Shown piece after piece: positions 34,835-53,653 of a DNA stretch of 64,000 bases. Source of the DNA: an uncultured virus (IMG/VR IMGVR_UViG_3300032288_004063) (Duplodnaviria; Heunggongvirae; Uroviricota; Caudoviricetes). The stretch's first letter is position 1. Every line of letters starts with the position of its first letter. Location of the stretch: IMG/VR virus record IMGVR_UViG_3300032288_004063; one strand, given 5' to 3'. A program made the position numbers and the translations under genes. The notes under the pieces were generated by a model. The model ran no database searches and was not told the origin of the DNA. It saw only the letters and a program-made list of their open reading frames with translations.

Positions 34835-35320
34835 ATGTTTACTGTATTTGTGGGAAGCAAGAATCAGGCGGTCAGCCTGGTAAAGAGGCACAATGCAACG
34901 CATTGGATTAGTCTTCTTGATCCGGGCGACAGGCAATTTGTGCCGTCTGATTCGCGATTTGACTCTGTCAATCGCTTGTTCATGAACTTTGAGGATGTCA
35001 ACAGAGATACTGACTCTGGTGCGCCTACAAGGGATCATGTTCAACGCATCTTGGACTTTACCAAGAATGTGAATGACGGTGTCATTGTGGTGAACTGCTT
35101 TGCTGGTGTGAGCCGTTCGACGGCAGCAGCATTCGCAATTCTGTTCCAGCATCATAGATGCATTGAGACATCGGTCGAGATGCTTCTGGATGTCCGTCCA
35201 CAAGCCTGTCCAAATCCACTCATCAGCAAGTTTGCCGATGACATCCTGGGTTGCAATGGACGCCTCTTTGAGGCCGCAGAGACGATAGCAAAAGAGAGAC
35301 TTTTACGGGTGTTTGGCTAA
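34835..35320 (+). CDS. protein-tyrosine-phosphatase-like (CX5R) protein
   Basis: VNCFAGVSRSTA, PNPL. Confidence 0.85.
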   Translation: MFTVFVGSKNQAVSLVKRHNATHWISLLDPGDRQFVPSDSRFDSVNRLFMNFEDVNRDTDSGAPTRDHVQRILDFTKNVNDGVIVVNCFAGVSRSTAAAFAILFQHHRCIETSVEMLLDVRPQACPNPLISKFADDILGCNGRLFEAAETIAKERLLRVFG

Positions 35321-35413
35321 GTCATTGAAATCATTGCAAAAAATAGTCCTTGACAATTGTTCGACACCCATATATACTGCATCTTGTAAGTTGATTGATG
35401 AGGCAGAGCAAAC

Positions 35414-35560
35414 ATGAATCCGAACGAAGTGTTGGAGTATAGTTTTGAAGACGCTGTTCAGGATCCTACCCTTTGGGCTGGATACGAGCAGTGGCTGGAT
35501 GAGCAAGCCAACATTTCGGACTTTGAACTCTGGCATGAGGAAAACGAATACCAGGGTTGA
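35414..35560 (+). CDS. small acidic protein (48 aa, not in ORF track)
   Basis: TTGACA-17-TATACT promoter at 35350, GAGG RBS; MNPNEVLEYSFED... Confidence 0.65.
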   Translation: MNPNEVLEYSFEDAVQDPTLWAGYEQWLDEQANISDFELWHEENEYQG

Positions 35561-35637
35561 TAAAAAAAGTCCTTGCGTTTTGAAAAAAAGTTTGCTAGAA
35601 TGCAGAAATGATGAAACGAGACGACTAAATAGAGATT

Positions 35638-35724
35638 ATGAAACATAGAACACTAAAACAGAATTCGATCCGCGTCGCAACAAAGCCTGAATGGTTTGCC
35701 ATTCAGCAAGCGGGTTTGTCTTGA
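35638..35724 (+). CDS. putative leader peptide (28 aa)
   Basis: MKHRTLKQNSIRVATKPEWFAIQQAGLS*; stop codon lies in the antiterminator 5' strand. Confidence 0.5.
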   Translation: MKHRTLKQNSIRVATKPEWFAIQQAGLS

Positions 35725-35784
35725 CTGCGTAGGGACTTTGAATCCCTTCACACCAAGACAAGCCCTCCTCGCGAGGGCTTTTTT
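35712..35784 (+). terminator. intrinsic terminator with mutually exclusive antiterminator
   Basis: AAGCCCTC/GAGGGCTT+T-run; GGGTTTGTCTTG pairs with CAAGACAAGCCC. Confidence 0.75.
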
Positions 35785-35785
35785 G

Positions 35786-35814
35786 TTGACAAAGTGATGG
35801 ATACCAGATAGTAT
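35786..35814 (+). promoter_or_regulatory. sigma70-type promoter for the ncRNA/tRNA cluster
   Basis: TTGACA-17bp-TAGTAT. Confidence 0.65.
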
Positions 35815-35934
35815 CTGATATCTGATAAACGCAACGAGGGCGTGACCTGCACTAGATTAGGTCGAACGGTCGGAACCGAGGATGAAATCTGCGGCGACAA
35901 CGCAGAGAGTAAAATTCGGGAAACAAGTATCAAG

Positions 35935-36282
35935 TGATACTTGATTGTGTGCATCAAACGATCCGATGGCCGTGGCCCAGTAGGGCGGACTCGGCGGTTG
36001 TTATCGAATGATGCACACAATCAAGTATCATAGAAAAAGAAGTGATATTTGATTGTGTGCATTAAACGAAGCACCGTGGCCCAGTAGGGCGGTCAGTGGA
36101 CTGGCGTTTGTTATCGAATGATGCACACAATCAAGTATCATAGAAAAAGAAGTGATGCTTGATTGTGTGCATGGAAGGCGTCAGGCCACGCCGATATAAT
36201 GGAGAATAGCTCTGGGAAATTTGCGAAAGCCTCGGAGTTGGGTGAGTTCAATTCTCATCAAAATGCACACAATCAAGTATCA
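35935..36282 (+). ncRNA. three tandem long-stem-enclosed RNA cassettes (35935-36030, 36043-36140, 36153-36282)
   Basis: 20-22 bp inverted repeats TGATACTTGATTGTGTGCAT/ATGCACACAATCAAGTATCA with G-U-compatible variants. Confidence 0.65.
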
Positions 36283-36285
36283 TAA

Positions 36286-36360
36286 CGCAGAGTGGAGCAG
36301 CAGCAGCTCGTCTGGCTCATACCCAGAAGGCCACAGGTGCAAGTCCTGTCTCTGCAACCA
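36286..36360 (+). tRNA. tRNA-fMet(CAT)
   Basis: C1:A72 mismatch, CAT anticodon, CCA. Confidence 0.85.
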
Positions 36361-36511
36361 ATTGTGCTAGGCTCTATGGTAGTCTAGCACATAAGGGTGT
36401 TATTCGATGAAGCCTAGCCAGGTGGAGAATAGCTAGTTGGGTTGCGCGAATCCAACGAAGTCGCAAATGAGCGGTGGCACCGACATTTGTGGAGCCCTTT
36501 CGCAATTACAT

Positions 36512-36599
36512 GGAAGTGTGGGAGAGTGGTTTAATCCGTCAGTCTTGAAAACTGAAGGACCTACGGGTCCCGTGAGTTCGAATCTCACCGCTTCCGCCA
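36512..36599 (+). tRNA. tRNA-Ser(TGA)
   Basis: cloverleaf, long variable arm, CCA. Confidence 0.95.
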
Positions 36600-36603
36600 T
36601 TAT

Positions 36604-36679
36604 GGAGCATTCGTCTAGAGGCCTAGGACCGCGGGCTTTCAATCCGCTAACAGGGGTTCGAATCCCCTATGCTCTACCA
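36604..36679 (+). tRNA. tRNA-Glu(TTC)
   Basis: cloverleaf, CCA. Confidence 0.9.
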
Positions 36680-36772
36680 ATTTTGCATGTTTTTGAGATA
36701 AAACATGCCGTACCTATCCGCGAGAGCTTAATAGACACAGGTGAGGTAGGTCATTCTGTGTCACAAAATCAG

Positions 36773-36849
36773 GCCCGTGTAGCCCAACTGGCAGAGGCGC
36801 CAGTCTTAGGTACTGGAGGTTGTCGGTTCAAATCCGACCGCGGGCACCA
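36773..36849 (+). tRNA. tRNA-Leu(TAG), short variable loop
   Basis: cloverleaf, CCA. Confidence 0.9.
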
Positions 36850-36854
36850 AATAT

Positions 36855-36929
36855 GGGTTGTTAGCTCAGAGGTAGAGCAGCGTCTTTACACGGCGAATGT
36901 CGGCGGTTCGATCCCGTCACGACCCACCA
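36855..36929 (+). tRNA. tRNA-Val(TAC)
   Basis: cloverleaf, CCA. Confidence 0.93.
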
Positions 36930-37026
36930 CTACAGCCGGATTACTAAGAAGCGGTTTCTAGATCTGCTTCGGTGCGTACCGGTAGAGGACCCCGTCACCT
37001 CTTAAAAAAATCGTGGAGCTTTTTAT

Positions 37027-37102
37027 GGACCAGTAGCTCAATTGGTAGAGCGTCGGACTCTTACTCCGTAGGTTCTCGGTTCAAATCCGAGCTGGTCTTC
37101 CA
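37027..37102 (+). tRNA. tRNA-Lys(CTT)
   Basis: cloverleaf, U73, CCA. Confidence 0.9.
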
Positions 37103-37108
37103 ATCATC

Positions 37109-37184
37109 GGGGCATTAGCTCAATCAGGAGAGCGCCTGCTTTGCAAGCAGGAGGCAGTCGGGGCGGAACCGACATGCTCCACCA
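37109..37184 (+). tRNA. tRNA-Ala(TGC), atypical T-loop
   Basis: G3:U70, T-loop GGCGGAA, CCA. Confidence 0.9.
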
Positions 37185-37188
37185 AGAT

Positions 37189-37356
37189 GCGAGTGCAGAT
37201 GCTGAGAAATTAGATGTAGGCATACATCTGAGAGTCCAACGGTGCGAGTCCGATCCAGAGACTGGACAAGTAACAGCTGCAACTGCTTACCTCTAACCCG
37301 GCGCGCCTAGTTTACACGGGTAAAATGAGTCCGAATGAGGGAGGCGGACTGCTCGC
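37189..37356 (+). ncRNA. unidentified structured RNA
   Basis: closing GCGAG..CAG/CTGCTCGC helix, several internal hairpins, no ORF. Confidence 0.4.
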
Positions 37357-37365
37357 TACTAATAT

Positions 37366-37442
37366 GGAGGCTATCGTCTAATGGTTGAGGACGGCGGTCT
37401 GTGACTCCGCAGGTGAGGGTTCAATTCCCTCTAGTCTCCCCA
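37366..37442 (+). tRNA. tRNA-His(GTG)
   Basis: encoded G-1:C73, CCA. Confidence 0.9.
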
Positions 37443-37450
37443 AATTTTAT

Positions 37451-37526
37451 GTCCCTATCATCTAATGGTTTAGGATATTGCCCTCTCAAGGCAAAAATAC
37501 GGGTTCAAATCCCGTTAGGGATACCA
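37451..37526 (+). tRNA. tRNA-Glu(CTC)
   Basis: cloverleaf, CCA. Confidence 0.9.
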
Positions 37527-37532
37527 GTTTAT

Positions 37533-37606
37533 TGGGGAATCGTCTAGTGGTAGGACTGCGGCCTTTGACTCCGCCTACGGTGGTTCGAATCCATCTTCCC
37601 CAGCCA
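37533..37606 (+). tRNA. tRNA-Gln(TTG)
   Basis: U1:A72, cloverleaf, CCA. Confidence 0.92.
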
Positions 37607-37611
37607 TTTGC

Positions 37612-37685
37612 TGCCCTTTCGTCTAACGGTAGGACACTCGGCTCTGAACCGATTAGTTGTGGTTCGAATCCATGAAGGGCAACCA
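37612..37685 (+). tRNA. tRNA-Gln(CTG)
   Basis: cloverleaf, CCA. Confidence 0.92.
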
Positions 37686-37689
37686 ATAT

Positions 37690-37763
37690 ATCAGCGTAGT
37701 GTAACGGTAGCACGGCAGCCTCCAAAACTGCTTGTCAGGGTTCAAATCCTTGCGCTGGTGCCA
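37690..37763 (+). tRNA. tRNA-Trp(CCA)
   Basis: cloverleaf, G73, CCA. Confidence 0.92.
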
Positions 37764-37767
37764 TTAT

Positions 37768-37857
37768 GGAGAGTGGGCAGGACGGTAATGCAGCGGTTTG
37801 CTAAACCGTAGATCGCCTAAAAACGGTCACAGGGTTCGATTCCCTGACTCTCCGCCA
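37768..37857 (+). tRNA. tRNA-Ser(GCT)
   Basis: long variable arm, CCA. Confidence 0.93.
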
Positions 37858-37866
37858 AATTAGTGC

Positions 37867-37924
37867 TTGACAATGCCAAGCACATAGCGTAATATGCACA
37901 TATTGATGTTTGACAACTGAATAT
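37867..37924 (+). promoter_or_regulatory. sigma70-type promoter followed by boxA-like element
   Basis: TTGACA-17-TAATAT then GATGTTTGACAACTGAATAT. Confidence 0.6.
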
Positions 37925-38001
37925 GCTCCTGTAGCTCAACGGACTAGAGCTGCTCGTTTCTACCGAGAAGGTTGTGGGTTCGAATCCTGCCAGGAGCGCC
38001 A
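37925..38001 (+). tRNA. tRNA-Arg(TCT)
   Basis: cloverleaf, CCA. Confidence 0.92.
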
Positions 38002-38009
38002 GTTTCTAG

Positions 38010-38376
38010 TAAGGGGTTTGATGCGGAACACTATTTATAGTGTCCCGATAGGGATCAAGGGTCTTGCTAGAGAGCCATTCACACTCTTACTGTTTGTTGG
38101 TGAAGGTTTGAAAGTAAACAGCATTCACTAGGTTTACTGATTTTTCCGAGAGGTGAATGGGCCATTACAAAAAACGGGCCGTGTTGATGCGGCGTCTCGC
38201 AAGGGAGTATCAACAACTTCACACTCTGAGCTGTCGGTTGGTGAAGTTTATATAGATGACAGGACGTTCCAGTCTGTGTGGGGGATTGGAAAAGAGAACA
38301 TGGCAAGATGCAGTTGATCGATGCGGCGAACTGTAAATCCAGGGGCCGAGCCGCCATCTTGTGCATAGCCCACACA
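38010..38376 (+). ncRNA. unidentified structured RNA region with duplicated pseudoknot-like motif
   Basis: TTCAC..CTGT..GTGAA..ACAG twice; GTGTGGG/CCCACAC long hairpin. Confidence 0.45.
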
Positions 38377-38383
38377 AATTTAT

Positions 38384-38458
38384 TCCGACCTAGCTCAATG
38401 GTAGAGCATTCGGCTGTTAACCGAATGGTTGCTGGTTCGAGTCCAGCGGTCGGAGCCA
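38384..38458 (+). tRNA. tRNA-Asn(GTT)
   Basis: cloverleaf, CCA. Confidence 0.95.
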
Positions 38459-38462
38459 ATAT

Positions 38463-38536
38463 ACCACACGATGCGGTTTCATCGCCTGCGTCTCATAAGC
38501 GCGGAGCTTCTGGTTCAACTCCAGAGTGTGGTACCA
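38463..38536 (+). tRNA. atypical tRNA(CAT) with degenerate D arm
   Basis: 7-bp acceptor, T arm, CTCATAA loop, CCA; lacks normal D-loop consensus. Confidence 0.7.
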
Positions 38537-38558
38537 AGTTGTGTCATACATTCATTTA

Positions 38559-38634
38559 GGACTGATAGCATAATGGTCAATGCCCTCTGCTCATAACAGA
38601 AACTATGGGGGTTCGAATCCCTCTCGGTCCACCA
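38559..38634 (+). tRNA. tRNA(CAT), Met or Ile2
   Basis: cloverleaf, CCA. Confidence 0.9.
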
Positions 38635-39087
38635 TTATCCAATATAATGATTAGATTTTCTTCTATTTTCTTCTTTTGTTAAATATTGAAGATTATCTTC
38701 ATGGTGCCAACCACCAAGAGATAATGGAATAATATGATCTACTTCATATCCTTCAGGACACAATTTGTAGATCTGTTTAATTTTATCTCTATTGGCCGTT
38801 GGATGAATTTTTCTTAGTTCTTTTGCGCGATACTTTGCTTGACGTTCTTTGTTTTTGGATTGATGATGTTTTTTATCTATAATTTTATAATATGATCCAC
38901 AGCAAATGCTTGAGCAAAATTTTCTGCGAGAACTTGAACATAAATTGTTGCAAACCAAACATAAACTTTTCGGTTTTCCTCTACGAGGACGATGTTTATT
39001 GGTGTATGTTGCAGAACACGATTGAGAACAAAATTTATGATTGCTAGTTTCCTTGCTGCAAACAAGGCAATAAATAGTGTTTGACAT
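38635..39087 (-). CDS. HNH homing endonuclease with zinc-finger repeats
   Basis: CxxC..FCS..C repeats; EVDHIIPL..GG.H..DNLQ.L...EN..KSN. Confidence 0.88.
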   Translation of the reverse strand: MSNTIYCLVCSKETSNHKFCSQSCSATYTNKHRPRRGKPKSLCLVCNNLCSSSRRKFCSSICCGSYYKIIDKKHHQSKNKERQAKYRAKELRKIHPTANRDKIKQIYKLCPEGYEVDHIIPLSLGGWHHEDNLQYLTKEENRRKSNHYIG

Positions 39088-39162
39088 TGCTGTGTCTCCG
39101 TTGTAAGATATTGGACATAGAGTGGATGGAAGTTCGCGCTTCGCGATCCACACTTATTTATC
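39088..39162 (-). promoter_or_regulatory. late promoter (GATAAATA) plus structured 5' leader of HNH gene
   Basis: GTGGAT-CGC-GAAG..CTTC-C-ATCCAC-TCTA, same architecture as 30071-30139. Confidence 0.7.
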
Positions 39163-39169
39163 TGAATAC

Positions 39170-39244
39170 GCTCGTCTAGTTCAATGGCAAGAACATCCAC
39201 CTCGTAAGTGGAAGATCAAGGCTCGATTCCTTGGATGAGCACCA
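39170..39244 (+). tRNA. tRNA-Thr(CGT)
   Basis: cloverleaf, CCA. Confidence 0.9.
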
Positions 39245-39253
39245 AAATCATGC

Positions 39254-39329
39254 TTGACAATAAGTCAGACATGATGTAGTATACAAACAATAGATGCGAA
39301 AGCATCGCTGATGTTTGACAATTAAATAT
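39254..39329 (+). promoter_or_regulatory. sigma70-type promoter followed by boxA-like element
   Basis: TTGACA-17-TAGTAT then GATGTTTGACAATTAAATAT. Confidence 0.6.
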
Positions 39330-39426
39330 GTGACGTTTAGTGTAGTGGTAGCACGGAAAGTCCGAGACACAGTAATGTGGAGTAGGCACCCAATGTCTAG
39401 CAATGGTTCGATTCCATTAGCGTCAC
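39330..39426 (+). ncRNA. tRNA-like RNA with expanded non-anticodon centre, no CCA
   Basis: acceptor GTGACGTT/AGCGTCAC, canonical D arm and T arm. Confidence 0.6.
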
Positions 39427-39441
39427 TTTTAATCCACATTT

Positions 39442-39516
39442 GCCCTCATAGCACAGCGGTAGTGCAGCGGTTTTGTAAACCGAAGGCCGGGAGTTCGATC
39501 CTCTCTGGGGGCACCA
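39442..39516 (+). tRNA. tRNA-Thr(TGT)
   Basis: cloverleaf, CCA. Confidence 0.93.
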
Positions 39517-39523
39517 GTTCAAT

Positions 39524-39601
39524 GGTCCGTTGGTCTAGACGGCTTAAGACACCCGCCTGTCACGCGGGAGATCACGGGTTCGAATCCCGTACGGATCGCC
39601 A
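39524..39601 (+). tRNA. tRNA-Asp(GTC)
   Basis: cloverleaf, CCA. Confidence 0.95.
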
Positions 39602-39605
39602 ATAT

Positions 39606-39681
39606 GGGGGTATAGCTCAGTTAGTAGAGCAATCGGCCGATAACCGATAGGTCGCAGGGGCAGAACCTGCTACCCCTACCA
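39606..39681 (+). tRNA. tRNA-Ile(GAT), atypical T-loop and C33
   Basis: loop CCGATAA, T-loop GGCAGAA, CCA. Confidence 0.88.
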
Positions 39682-39685
39682 TTGC

Positions 39686-39885
39686 TACCATTTGAAAGCA
39701 CACTGACGGATCGAGTTGAACATCCAGCTATAGCAACCTTGAGGTTCGAGTCCTCTCTCAATCTGGAAAGATTGTGTTGGTTTCGGTAACTGTTGCTGGA
39801 AGTTGAATTCGATTCGGTCCCCTGGCAGGGGCGAAAGATATCTGTGCCAGCAGATAATTCGATATCAGTGTGCCTTCAAATGGTA
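39686..39885 (+). ncRNA. long-stem-enclosed RNA A (second family)
   Basis: TACCATTTGAAAGCACACTGA/TCAGTGTGCCTTCAAATGGTA; internal T-arm GAGG-TTCGAGT-CCTC. Confidence 0.65.
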
Positions 39886-39902
39886 TGTGATGTTAAATCG
39901 TC

Positions 39903-40044
39903 TATCATTTGTAAGCACATTCGTTGCTGAGTCGCAATTCAGTTGCTGAGTCGCTATCAGTGACTGAGTCGCAATCAGTACGGAATATAGGGAGTCATGA
40001 CCCTAGTAGGTTCAAATCCTACCCGAATGTGCTTTCAAATGGTA
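39903..40044 (+). ncRNA. long-stem-enclosed RNA B (second family)
   Basis: TATCATTTGTAAGCACATTCG/CGAATGTGCTTTCAAATGGTA; three CTGA-GTCGC.A-TCAG hairpins; T-arm. Confidence 0.65.
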
Positions 40045-40103
40045 TTTTGTGCTAAACCAACAGTAGACTATAGGATGTGATAAAGCTGCCAGTTCAAATC
40101 AAT

Positions 40104-40179
40104 GGACCTCTAGCTCAATTGGCAGAGCAGCATCCTTTTAAGTTGTTGGTTCAGGGTTCGACTCCCTGGAGGTCCTCCA
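40104..40179 (+). tRNA. tRNA-Lys(TTT)
   Basis: cloverleaf with weak anticodon stem, U73, CCA. Confidence 0.88.
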
Positions 40180-40183
40180 ATTT

Positions 40184-40258
40184 GGTCCCTTAGTATAACG
40201 GAAAGAACATCTGACTACGAATCAGAAGGTGGGGGTTCGATTCCTCCAGGGACTACCA
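40184..40258 (+). tRNA. tRNA-Arg(ACG)
   Basis: cloverleaf, CCA. Confidence 0.92.
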
Positions 40259-40265
40259 GTACAAC

Positions 40266-40343
40266 CCGTGTGTAGCTCAGTCTGGCCAGAGCACTCCGTT
40301 TGGGGCGGAGGGGTCGTAGGTTCAAATCCTACTACACGGACCA
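40266..40343 (+). tRNA. tRNA-Pro(TGG)
   Basis: cloverleaf, CCA. Confidence 0.95.
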
Positions 40344-40363
40344 TTTTAATCATGTGAGGTATC

Positions 40364-40597
40364 ATGCAGCTAACCAATCTGAATGAGATGCAAAAAGCAC
40401 TCTGCGAAATTCTTTGGGAACTTGATGATCACAAAGAAGTCGGTGCTTTTCTTGATGGTCTTCCTACCAGAATCAGGCAAGATGCCCATAACATGATCGA
40501 ACTAATGATCTTAAATAAGATTGATGAAACTGAGGCAACTGATATTGCCGATGATATCGTCAATAAAATCCTTGCAAAAAAGAAAGATACTGAGTAG
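40364..40597 (+). CDS. hypothetical protein
   Basis: GAGGT RBS, 77 aa. Confidence 0.7.
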   Translation: MQLTNLNEMQKALCEILWELDDHKEVGAFLDGLPTRIRQDAHNMIELMILNKIDETEATDIADDIVNKILAKKKDTE

Positions 40598-40630
40598 AAT
40601 AACAAAGTGGAGTAAAGAAGGAAAGTTACC

Positions 40631-41188
40631 ATGTCTATCGGTCTTAGAACTCTTGTCTTGAACGCGGACTATCATCCAATTTCTCTGTTTCCTCTACACA
40701 CAATTCCTGTAGAAGATGCAGTGACACGCTTGTTCAATGGTACATGCCAAATGGTATTTGAGCATGATAGAAAGATTCTAACGCCGTCTCTGGACATGCG
40801 TTGGCCGTCTGTCATTGCTCGTATTGATACCAAGCGTGTCAAAGAGCGTGTCAAGCTTGGTGCGGAAGGTTTGTACTATCGTGATCACGGTCTGTGCGCG
40901 TACTGTGAAACGCCACTGACGTTGAAGTGCATCACGTTCGACCATGTCGTGCCAAAGTCTAAGGGTGGTGGATATACATGGGACAATCTTGTCTCTGCGT
41001 GTTCTACCTGTAATCTGCTCAAGGGCGATTCGATGCCTGTTGGTAGATGGAAGCCCAAGAAGCAGCCTTATAAGCCCTCTTACTATGATTTGCTTGCAAT
41101 TCGGAAGAAGTTTCCGATTCAGGTAGATGACGAGAACTGGCTGCAGTTCATTGGTAAGTGGGATGCACCTGTGGTGGTCAGGAACTAG
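40631..41188 (+). CDS. HNH endonuclease family protein
   Basis: LVLNADY.P; RD..CAYC, TFDHVVPKSKGG..WDNLV.AC..CN..K. Confidence 0.9.
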   Translation: MSIGLRTLVLNADYHPISLFPLHTIPVEDAVTRLFNGTCQMVFEHDRKILTPSLDMRWPSVIARIDTKRVKERVKLGAEGLYYRDHGLCAYCETPLTLKCITFDHVVPKSKGGGYTWDNLVSACSTCNLLKGDSMPVGRWKPKKQPYKPSYYDLLAIRKKFPIQVDDENWLQFIGKWDAPVVVRN

Positions 41189-41240
41189 AAATAGTTCTTG
41201 ACTATCTCAGAGAGAACTGATATAGTTAGTGAATAAATAC

Positions 41241-41333
41241 GGGAGTGTTGGTACTATGGCGTGTGTGCCCTCCGACTGTAAATCGGATCCCTTGTGGTAA
41301 ACGATGCTGGTTCGAATCCGGCCACTCCCACCA
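41241..41333 (+). tRNA. tRNA-Tyr(GTA)
   Basis: GTA anticodon, long variable region, CCA. Confidence 0.88.
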
Positions 41334-41336
41334 ATT

Positions 41337-41410
41337 GCGGCGTTAGTATAATGGTATTATTACAGCCTTCCAAGCTGAAGACGCGGGTTCGATTCCCGCA
41401 CGCCGCTCCA
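41337..41410 (+). tRNA. tRNA-Gly(TCC)
   Basis: cloverleaf, U73, CCA. Confidence 0.95.
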
Positions 41411-41416
41411 AATTTT

Positions 41417-41491
41417 GCGGGCATAGCTCAGTGGTAGAGCGTCACGTTGCCAACGTGAATGTCGTCGGTTCGACCCCGATTGCCCGCTCCA
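41417..41491 (+). tRNA. tRNA-Gly(GCC)
   Basis: cloverleaf, U73, CCA. Confidence 0.95.
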
Positions 41492-41719
41492 GCAAATGTC
41501 AGAAACACGACGTTTAGTAATAGGCTTCTCATCTATGAAAACCGTTGTCTAGTATGACAGAATCAGCAACCGCTAAAGGTGTGAGAGCCAATGCGTTGTC
41601 CCATAAGTGTTGCCAAAGGATGACTGTAACCTTCAAATATGAAGTGTGTAGCTAAGGTACACACTCAATCGAGGCTTTCTAGATTGTGCCAGCATAGCAA
41701 AACAATCTACACCATTTTC

Positions 41720-41796
41720 GCCCTTGTATCCCAATTGGCAGAGGAGGCGGCTTCAAACTCCGCATGTTGTCGGTTCGACTCCGACCGAGGGCACCA
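41720..41796 (+). tRNA. tRNA-Leu(CAA), short variable loop
   Basis: Leu-type D arm, A73, CCA. Confidence 0.85.
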
Positions 41797-41929
41797 AACA
41801 CCGATGTGGTAACCAAACCACACGGTTAGCATAGAAGTACGTTAGAGTTTGAGCGTTTAAAGTGACGTAATGACACAATGGGTTCCTAGGCCATTGTGGA
41901 ATCATCTCCCGCTTCTATGTGATTTATTT

Positions 41930-42005
41930 GTGCATGTGACCCGAACGGCTAGGGACATGACTGCAACTCATGTATATGTAGGTTCAACTCCTATCATGCA
42001 CTCCA
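41930..42005 (+). tRNA. tRNA-Cys(GCA)
   Basis: cloverleaf, U73, CCA. Confidence 0.92.
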
Positions 42006-42009
42006 TTAC

Positions 42010-42085
42010 GGACTGTTGGTGAAGCTGGTGCTCACATTCGCCTGAAGAGCGAAGGAACTCTGTTCGATTCAGAGACAGTCCACCA
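42010..42085 (+). tRNA. tRNA-Phe(GAA)
   Basis: cloverleaf, CCA. Confidence 0.9.
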
Positions 42086-42089
42086 TTTT

Positions 42090-42164
42090 GGGACCATAGC
42101 TCAGTGGTAGAGCATCTGCTCGACACGCAGAGGGTCGTTGGTTCAAATCCATCTGGTCCCACCA
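42090..42164 (+). tRNA. tRNA-Val(GAC)
   Basis: cloverleaf, C33, CCA. Confidence 0.9.
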
Positions 42165-42165
42165 T

Positions 42166-42240
42166 GCCCTCATAGTACAGTGGCTAGTACATCGCTTTGG
42201 TAAAGCGGAGATGGCAGTTCAATTCTGCCTGAGGGCACCA
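42166..42240 (+). tRNA. tRNA-Thr(GGT)
   Basis: cloverleaf, CCA. Confidence 0.93.
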
Positions 42241-42250
42241 GTTTCAAGAT

Positions 42251-42282
42251 AGGGGAAGAGAGCAATCTCTTCCCCTTTTTTT
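42251..42282 (+). terminator. intrinsic terminator ending the tRNA cluster
   Basis: AGGGGAAGAGA-GCAA-TCTCTTCCCCT + T-run. Confidence 0.9.
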
Positions 42283-42925
42283 ATTCAAAATTTTTTGATT
42301 TCCAATGAGTTGGAATAATATCTCTCATCTGAGATTCTATTTCTTGTCTTATTTCCGTTATGTTTTCTGGCTGTTTTGTTTTCTGAGGATACTCTATAGG
42401 TAGAGCACTAAAATCCACATCTTCGTAGTAAACGCGCTTATGAAAAATATCACAATTTTCTGCGTAAAACGATGCTATAGTGACTTGCTCAATTATTTGT
42501 GAAATCTTGAATTTATCAAGTTTTACAGAATATGTTTGAGTCATTTTATTATTATTGTTAGACCAATTATTCGTCTGTTCGGCGATATACCAACTCGCAA
42601 TTTGACCAACTATGTCTCTTCTTTGTAGAAGAATTTTGTATCCGGTTTTCATATCTTCATGATATGGTGATCGATGATCAAGTTGTGTTATCCAAAATTT
42701 CACTATGTATTTTTTACTTTTTTGTCGATAGTCCAGGTATTTTAGATAGCCATTGGCTTTTTCTTTTTCTTTATACATTCCAAAACTCCATGGCTCGCTA
42801 AAAGCAGGTAATCCTAATCCAAGACTCAATAAACTCATATATGCTGTTGATCCGCATCTTGGAGATGTTCCAATTACTACTATAGGTAATTTATTAATCA
42901 CAATCTCTTTCCCTTTTTTATTCAA
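42281..42925 (-). CDS. sulfotransferase-like protein (Stf0/NodH-like), paralog 2
   Basis: SPRCGST, EPW, RRD..QIASW, YYED. Confidence 0.7.
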   Translation of the reverse strand: MNKKGKEIVINKLPIVVIGTSPRCGSTAYMSLLSLGLGLPAFSEPWSFGMYKEKEKANGYLKYLDYRQKSKKYIVKFWITQLDHRSPYHEDMKTGYKILLQRRDIVGQIASWYIAEQTNNWSNNNNKMTQTYSVKLDKFKISQIIEQVTIASFYAENCDIFHKRVYYEDVDFSALPIEYPQKTKQPENITEIRQEIESQMRDIIPTHWKSKNFE

Positions 42926-53480: not shown

Positions 53481-53572
53481 CGGCGCCGGTGTTGGTACAC
53501 AGGGAGGTCTTATAAACCTTTCAGCGGCAGATTACCGTTCTCGACTGGATTCGATTTCCAGGGCGCCGACCA
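53481..53572 (+). tRNA. atypical tRNA(TAT) with long variable arm
   Basis: CGGCGCC/GGCGCCG acceptor, CTTATAA loop, T arm, CCA. Confidence 0.75.
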
Positions 53573-53576
53573 ACTT

Positions 53577-53653
53577 GCCCACGTAGACCAACCGGCAGAG
53601 TCAGGAGACTTAAAATCTCTGTAGTGCGAGTTCGAATCTCGCCGTGGGCACCA
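53577..53653 (+). tRNA. tRNA-Leu(TAA), short variable loop
   Basis: cloverleaf, CCA. Confidence 0.92.

Follow-up and report, generated by a model that had tools for sequence, protein, structure and literature searches.

Ribosome-mediated attenuation works by mutually exclusive pairings. In the leaders trpL, hisL, thrL, ilvL and pheM, which belong to amino-acid operons and pheST, a promoter is followed by a short open reading frame (ORF) and by an antiterminator and an intrinsic terminator that exclude each other, and a ribosome at the stop codon favours termination. Why large phages carry full sets of tRNA genes is a long-open question, and to our knowledge the regulation of phage tRNA arrays has hardly been studied. 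The leader described here, which precedes the tRNA array of an uncultured phage, resembles attenuators of the trp, his and pheST type in its promoter, short ORF and exclusive helices. In leaders of the trp, his and thr type, however, the sensed codons occur in runs and the genes controlled encode enzymes, whereas the phage leader has no codon run and precedes small RNAs and tRNA genes. The class of mechanism is textbook knowledge; tRNA genes as its target are absent from the literature searched, and the open-licence literature, as judged from titles and the beginnings of abstracts, yielded no report of a phage tRNA array controlled by attenuation.

The nearest functional analogue is the PA5471.1 leader of Pseudomonas aeruginosa, which is reported to raise transcription of armZ (PA5471) on ribosome stalling, including stalling after loss of the tRNA CCA-adding enzyme (PMC13041342). 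A second source describes its attenuation mechanism as proposed and in need of confirmation (PMC12057347). In both leaders the translation state of a short ORF is proposed to set termination, and PA5471.1 is reported to respond to general ribosome trouble and not to one amino acid. PA5471.1 is bacterial and acts on protein genes for efflux regulation, whereas the phage leader precedes an array of tRNAs and small RNAs, has 28-31 codons and would probably be leaderless when made from its late-promoter-like box; the two are likened by function, not by homology. Mycobacteria have polycysteine attenuators with leaderless short ORFs (10.1101/834739), and these share with the leader proposed here a leaderless short ORF at the 5' end of the transcript as a sensor of ribosome stalling.

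The trn operon of Anabaena is a stress-induced tRNA array controlled by the repressor TrcR (PMC10272220). It resembles the phage array, as interpreted below, in being a long tRNA array on a mobile replicon that is switched on by translational stress, but its switch is a ribbon-helix-helix repressor acting at initiation, not attenuation. Three papers indicate that the tRNAs encoded by phages can restore infection where the host deploys tRNA-cleaving defences (PMC11555353; PMC10264068; PMC11464382), and the rescue depends on promoter strength (PMC11555353). In the main text of the last-named paper the phage tRNAs are expressed from a strong promoter with no sensor, and the strings 'attenuat' and 'leader' are absent. 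A supply of tRNA when the host destroys its own pool is the likely benefit of the array described here. With a probability of about 0.7, the element ahead of this array is a ribosome-mediated transcription attenuator.

Genome context

The window, that is, the whole stretch of 64,000 nucleotides that was analysed, lies within a source record (G000) of 138,877 bp with a G+C content of 40%. The record contains genes for a T4-type primase, a ribonucleotide reductase and a gp55-type late sigma factor. The best matches of the primase among annotated phages are cyanophages, with an identity of only 42-44%, and the record is therefore regarded as an uncultured T4-like phage with no close cultured relative and no host assignment. 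The features of the locus are summarized in Table 1. The initial annotation had named the CTAAATA box, the ORF, the terminator, the 12-bp alternative helix and the TTGACA-17-TAGTAT promoter, all of which were recovered in a check of the sequence at the coordinates of Table 1; the sigma70-like promoter upstream, the hairpin inside the ORF and the hairpin at the downstream -10 box had been overlooked.

Table 1. Features of the leader and of the tRNA array, in window positions.
Feature	Position	Strand	Basis or remark
Sigma70-like promoter TTGCGT-17-TAGAAT	35573..35601	+	consensus match; would fire into leader
T4-type late-promoter-like box CTAAATA	35625..35631	+	predicted start 35637
Leader ORF, 28 codons, 17 amino-acid types	35638..35724	+	open in all relatives (28-31 codons)
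Hairpin inside ORF, 8 bp	35687..35706	+	-9.5 kcal/mol
Antiterminator 5' arm	35712..35723	+	holds last codons and start of stop codon
Variable inner hairpin closing the antiterminator loop	35726..35752	+	sequence free, indels
Antiterminator 3' arm	35754..35765	+	last 6 nt = terminator 5' arm
Intrinsic terminator, 8 bp and U-tract	35760..35784 (stem 35760-35780)	+	64/64 cells paired
Sigma70-like promoter TTGACA-17-TAGTAT	35786..35814	+	immediately behind terminator
10-bp hairpin centred on downstream -10 box	35799..35823	+	covariation; -7.0 kcal/mol
Structured non-coding RNAs at array head	35821..36282	+	one conserved folded RNA, then three stem-clamped units
tRNA array	36286..42240	+	about 33 genes
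Sigma70-like promoters inside tRNA array	37867, 39081, 39254, 41198	+	sequence
Strong terminator closing tRNA array	42251..42284	+	sequence

ARAGORN called 31 tRNA genes in the array and Rfam added three; one ARAGORN call (39936) is without Rfam support, hence the approximate number in Table 1. No plus-strand terminator of comparable strength to the closing one was found between 35784 and 42251, so that read-through from the leader could span the entire array. Among metatranscriptome runs, at least 24 of the matches listed contain parts of 35300-37900 (shares 0.13-0.44), figures that refer to the region as a whole and do not single out the expressed part within it.

The structured RNAs at the array head had no match in an Rfam search of 35821-36282. 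The first (35821-35930) lies directly 3' of the downstream promoter; it occurs in each of the 8 relatives and, partially, in the distant record G001. The three small folded RNAs at 35935-36282 have a common closing stem of 20-28 bp (fold z -7.6 to -10.6), and the third carries a T-arm-like hairpin; relatives have one unit or different units. Assignment of these stem-clamped RNAs as YrlA-like was rejected, since Rfam gives no support at their coordinates. Behind two of the internal promoters lie boxA-like motifs (37904-37916 and 39293-39321), the second preceded by a GAAA-loop hairpin; they resemble rRNA-operon antitermination signals. A tRNA-like element of 96 nt (39331-39426) has an Rfam score of 38 bits and no ARAGORN call. 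Two endonuclease-like genes are found inside the array, one at 40631-41188 that matches HNH PHROGs and one on the minus strand (38635-39153), antisense to the array, with a motif that looks HNH-like by eye; in relatives, insertions occupy other positions of the array. Two more tRNAs, a long tRNA-Ile (anticodon TAT) and a tRNA-Leu (TAA), lie at 53481-53653, 11 kb from the array. In G001 (L105) ARAGORN called a tRNA-Pyl with an amber anticodon in a second tRNA array on the minus strand. Two genes upstream of the leader (34835-35320) lies a gene whose protein falls in a cluster with members named 'predicted protein tyrosine phosphatase'; L009 and L010 keep this gene in synteny. In L009 (4463-4630), the gene of 48 codons that precedes the leader carries an internal duplication of its WxxYEQWLD segment.

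Relatives of the leader

Pattern and protein searches for relatives among viral and metagenome contigs yielded nine different leader sequences, that of the window among them. Eight were aligned; L020, near-identical to the window, was left out. The eight aligned sequences (the window and seven relatives) represent about five lineages of one clade, with a mean column identity of 84%. The promoter, the AUG, both helices and a stop codon within 2 nt of the helix end are kept in 8/8. A tRNA array follows the leader wherever the contig reaches far enough; in L036 and two short metagenome loci the contig ends before any tRNA. Conservation of the ORF-stop position and of both helices upstream of tRNA clusters in relatives, which the initial annotation had proposed as a check, was thus observed throughout the aligned set.

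Clade members accounted for 1/2, 7/8, 9/9, 8/44 and 6/33 of the matches in the pattern scans, the last of which gave no new member, and the remaining matches were unrelated. A scan with a pattern of the downstream RNA returned eight viral contigs, and the leader was present in 8/8, a test that is only partly independent because the degenerate positions of the pattern were drawn from the same relatives. Outside the clade no leader was found in annotated phages or in the prokaryote genome set. A blastn search of annotated phages with 35540-36300 gave three records with 26-nt, terminator-sized matches only. Pattern scans of bacterial and archaeal genomes gave 0 matches and, in another scan, 2 matches, neither of which scored with model R1. 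L044, L058 and L061 were similar or scored with model R1, but had been picked by the same motif and were rejected; L044 has no stop before its terminator, and L058 and L061 are the ends of ordinary genes. The distant phage records G001, G002 and G003 contain tRNAs and gave no match to model R1, and no leader switch was seen at the array heads examined in G001 and G002. A second copy of the leader element was not found in the source record. Part of the downstream RNA, and with it the first tRNA, is also present in G001, where both are started by that record's own promoter with no leader; the leader is therefore not obligatory for such arrays.

Pairing geometry and masked folding

Of the 12 pairs between the two antiterminator arms, 11 are Watson-Crick and one is G-U; the helix has six nucleotides, AAGCCC, in common with the terminator. 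The T and G of the TGA stop codon are the last two bases of its 5' arm, which places the last codons and stop of the ORF on this strand, as originally described. The predicted energy of the antiterminator domain is -27.3 kcal/mol against -12.4 kcal/mol for the terminator, and the domain is complete 15 nt before the terminator. The leader region folds better than its shuffles (z = -3.3). To assess the geometry, the terminator was kept fixed and the upstream 122 nt were dinucleotide-shuffled 2,000 times. An excluding helix of at least 10 bp appeared in 11 shuffles and one of at least 12 bp in two, while the combination of a helix of at least 12 bp with a stop within 3 nt appeared in 0/2000. Ten terminators were called genome-wide by a strict scan, and an excluding helix is present in this one only.

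In the alignment of eight sequences the terminator is paired in 64/64 cells and the antiterminator in 97/104 (93.3%). The variation of the antiterminator consists of U/C changes opposite G and one double change, at the closing pair. Its covariation is weak: one pair is changed on both sides, a level also reached in 238 of 500 shuffles, and 8 of the 13 pairs never vary. The flanks are nearly free: none of the 13 columns of the linker before the 5' arm is invariant, and 3 of 31 are in the spacer after it.

Each leader was folded up to the terminator in an equilibrium model with the ribosome footprint forced unpaired; footprint sizes were 9, 12 and 15 nt, and either start site was used. A ribosome placed on the stop codon gave a modelled terminator probability of 1.00 in 8/8, which is a consequence of the geometry rather than an independent result. 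With the ribosome at codons 8-17 the mean modelled probability was 0.00-0.38; L010 was mixed at most ribosome positions. The exclusive-pairing geometry claimed for the leader is upheld by the conservation of both helices and of the stop position in 8/8, and the masked leaders switch in the model as predicted. The accompanying claim that stalling on any depleted or cleaved tRNA allows read-through was overstated, since a ribosome on the last 6-8 codons would cover the antiterminator and favour termination in the model. In the window, stalls at codons 1-7 and 19-22 are also predicted to favour termination at equilibrium. With no ribosome, the terminator was preferred in the window (0.95), L007 and L021 (range 0.95-1.00), via the extra pairing 35667-35673 / 35710-35716, which is not kept in L010, L012, L015 and L036. 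The antiterminator was preferred in L009, L012 and L015, and L010 and L036 were mixed; the default state is thus not conserved among the relatives.

Leader reading frame

The amino acids Cys, Asp and Tyr are absent from the leader ORF of the window. The count of 17 amino-acid types given in the initial annotation is correct, but it is weak evidence, as 6.7% of random 28-mers from the proteins of this genome have the same number. The first 22 codons hold 16 types (P = 0.03), and the leaders of the relatives hold 15-18 (P 0.03-0.5 against random peptides). Tyr is missing from 8/8 leaders, and Cys and Asp from 7/8; Gly occurs only in the last codons, where the ribosome already masks the antiterminator. 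Among the 28 codons 25 distinct sense codons are found, with no run longer than two. On these counts, too, a sensor of 'any' tRNA was overstated, with 15-18 amino acids sampled and Tyr, and mostly Cys and Asp, absent. The leader codons cover all 10 amino acids of the first sub-array, as do 1.5% of random 28-mers; this match was not counted, because it was defined after the data had been seen and many leader codons are read by later tRNAs.

In 8/8, and in two frames, the stop codon is positioned -1, +1 or +2 relative to the final G of the helix 5' arm. A frameshift of 1 nt within the last codons of three relatives brings in a TAA stop right behind the helix, and in L036 TGT replaces TGA, with a new TGA one codon later. 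The rough joint chance of both re-acquisitions is 0.005-0.01, at a stop-triplet frequency of 0.051. The retention of the stop at the helix end through a frameshift suggests that the ORF is translated, and is the best evidence for it. Over the 20 codons up to and including the conserved EWxAI motif, no indel breaks the frame. Under neutrality, the chance that a frame would still be open after about 30 changes is roughly 0.2 (stop fraction 0.048), so that the openness of the ORF by itself proves little.

In a comparison with L010, the 20 aligned leader codons have 0 synonymous and 9 non-synonymous changes. The corresponding numbers are 67 and 41 for the upstream phosphatase-like gene (Fisher p = 0.0003 against the leader) and 9 and 9 for the 48-codon gene (p = 0.012 against the leader). 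Leader changes fall on the three codon positions in the numbers 10, 11 and 9. These comparisons indicate that the leader peptide is not selected as a protein, which fits a leader whose translation, and not its product, matters, and fits a non-coding RNA as well. The peptide is absent from a 15-billion protein set and has no match in PHROG, and tblastn against annotated phages gave one record at E = 1.

If the leader were a non-coding RNA switch, its helices would be set by a protein, RNA or metabolite that binds it, for example at 35687-35706, and the ORF would be incidental. The even spread of changes over codon positions is that of a non-coding RNA, no good Shine-Dalgarno sequence precedes the ORF, and invariant stretches of the ORF can pair with the terminator 3' arm and with the spacer of the downstream promoter. 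These long-range pairs lack covariation, however, and the pairing of the ORF with the terminator 3' arm was rejected. The AUG is moreover invariant at the predicted start, no indel breaks the frame before the last codons, and the stop was re-acquired twice at the helix end. Rfam riboswitch, T-box and leader families are also unmatched: the leader families gave no match at 35625-35814 beyond a sub-threshold minus-strand hit, and the T-box covariance models gave no hit at the gathering score or at E values up to 5. A switch of this kind is considered distinctly unlikely.

Seven inner pairs of the hairpin at 35687-35706 never vary, while its loop changes; it may be a pause or timing element. Of eight invariant leader residues, five fall late in the ORF and immediately precede the masking zone. 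This arrangement would suit an attenuator with a specific input, in which the nascent peptide or the conserved codons near K-x-E-W-x-A-I stall the ribosome on one cue, be it one amino acid such as Trp, one tRNA or a drug. The only mildly raised amino-acid diversity of the leader points the same way, and in PA5471.1 the response to a tRNA defect is reported to depend on two particular codons (PMC13041342). Against such an input, the leader has no run of one codon, conservation of the EWxAI codons is already explained, as they are the invariant RNA hairpin, and synonymous sites are as fixed as the others. On balance a single specific cue is unlikely, and sensing by an attenuator of broader input is preferred.

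Promoters

In the relatives the upstream sigma70-like promoter has better -35 boxes, and directly upstream L036 has three and L010 two tandem copies. These tandem promoters point into a unit that holds only the leader ORF. The sequence ACTAAATAGAG is invariant in 8/8 sequences (11/11 columns), and the preceding 16 columns are not invariant. The hexamer TAAATA occurs 36 times in the window against 49 expected and is not over-represented; the late box is thus not above chance by its hexamer alone and is supported instead by the conservation of ACTAAATAGAG. The gp55-type late sigma gene of the source record accompanies this reading. In T4 the late box spans -13 to -6, and the form CTAAATA is used by phage Aeh1 (PMC1524935). 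An AUG follows TAAATA at a distance of 5 or 6 nt in 8/8. Together with the T4 position this spacing would place the AUG at +2 (+1 in three relatives) of a nearly leaderless mRNA, and by this analogy the leader mRNA made from the late box would be leaderless. No well-spaced Shine-Dalgarno sequence is visible before the leader ORF, so that its translation from the sigma70 transcript is doubtful.

Both hexamers of the downstream promoter and their 17-nt spacing are invariant in 8/8, and similar promoters are also present in the complete relative G004. This conservation and the four promoters inside the array make basal transcription independent of the leader probable, and they lend weight to the caveat of the initial annotation that a separate promoter behind the terminator may drive the cluster. 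The spacer positions 35792-35799 are invariant in 8/8, which is unusual for a spacer, and can pair with the invariant stretch 35673-35678.

A purely constitutive arrangement would have the terminator end upstream transcription and insulate the array, which would run on its own promoter at 35786, the leader being a stand-alone gene for a small RNA or peptide. The invariant downstream promoter, the four promoters inside the array, the folding of the naked window RNA to the terminator and the similar array head that G001 runs with no leader all agree with it. It leaves unexplained, however, a conserved 12-bp helix that dismantles the terminator, a stop kept on that helix through a frameshift, the lack of protein-level selection and the covarying hairpin at the -10 box, and is regarded as very unlikely.

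This hairpin (35799-35823) is paired in 100% of the cells in eight sequences, with four pairs changed on both sides and two one-sided changes (G-C/G-U or A-U/G-U). Its 5' arm lies upstream of the start of the downstream promoter, so that as RNA it would form only in the read-through transcript, and its covariation is consistent with such a read-through RNA. The element could also act as DNA, an operator or cruciform whose palindrome, centred on the -10 box, represses the downstream promoter and sets control mainly at initiation, as with TrcR. The one-sided G-C to G-U changes and the four double changes suit an RNA helix better than an operator read by a protein, and by eye no such palindrome is present at the other promoters of the array. 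The invariant promoter spacer and the precedent of a repressed, stress-induced tRNA operon (PMC10272220) point the other way. Such an operator as the main control is given very little weight; operator and attenuation can coexist.

Proposed mechanism

The locus contains the parts of a ribosome-mediated attenuator, with overlapping helices and with conservation in all aligned relatives. Transcription would start at the upstream sigma70-like promoter or promoters or at the late box, and a ribosome would translate the leader ORF behind the RNA polymerase. A ribosome that reaches the last 6-8 codons in time would cover 35712-35723, the terminator would form and the transcript would end at about 35784. 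A ribosome that lags, or that stalls around codons 8-18 and probably even as late as codon 22, would let the antiterminator form, and the polymerase would then continue through the small RNAs into the tRNAs, perhaps reaching 42284.

Since no single codon forms a run, the leader would report the general speed of translation, which would drop when tRNAs for the roughly 15 sampled amino acids are uncharged or cleaved, or when drugs act. In this model the switch would sense the overall speed of decoding for about three in four amino acids instead of 'any tRNA'. Given the promoters behind the terminator and inside the array, it would provide a stress-dependent boost over a basal level and is likely a booster rather than the sole gate of the array. 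The boost is perhaps the main supply of tRNA in the late phase.

A further step is more tentative, and we hold it at somewhat less than even odds: the leader would be a leaderless test ORF that senses general tRNA failure, an inducible counter-defence with no protein sensor and with a closed feedback loop. The ORF behind the late promoter would sample most codon families, and slowed decoding, for example on cleavage of tRNAs by an anti-phage nuclease, would lift termination. About 33 replacement tRNAs and the stem-clamped small RNAs would then be transcribed.

Should the attenuator be real, the phage measures translation and makes tRNA on demand. This would favour phage tRNAs as a means of repairing a damaged or depleted pool over simple compensation of codon bias, and the stresses that open the switch would tell what the array is for.
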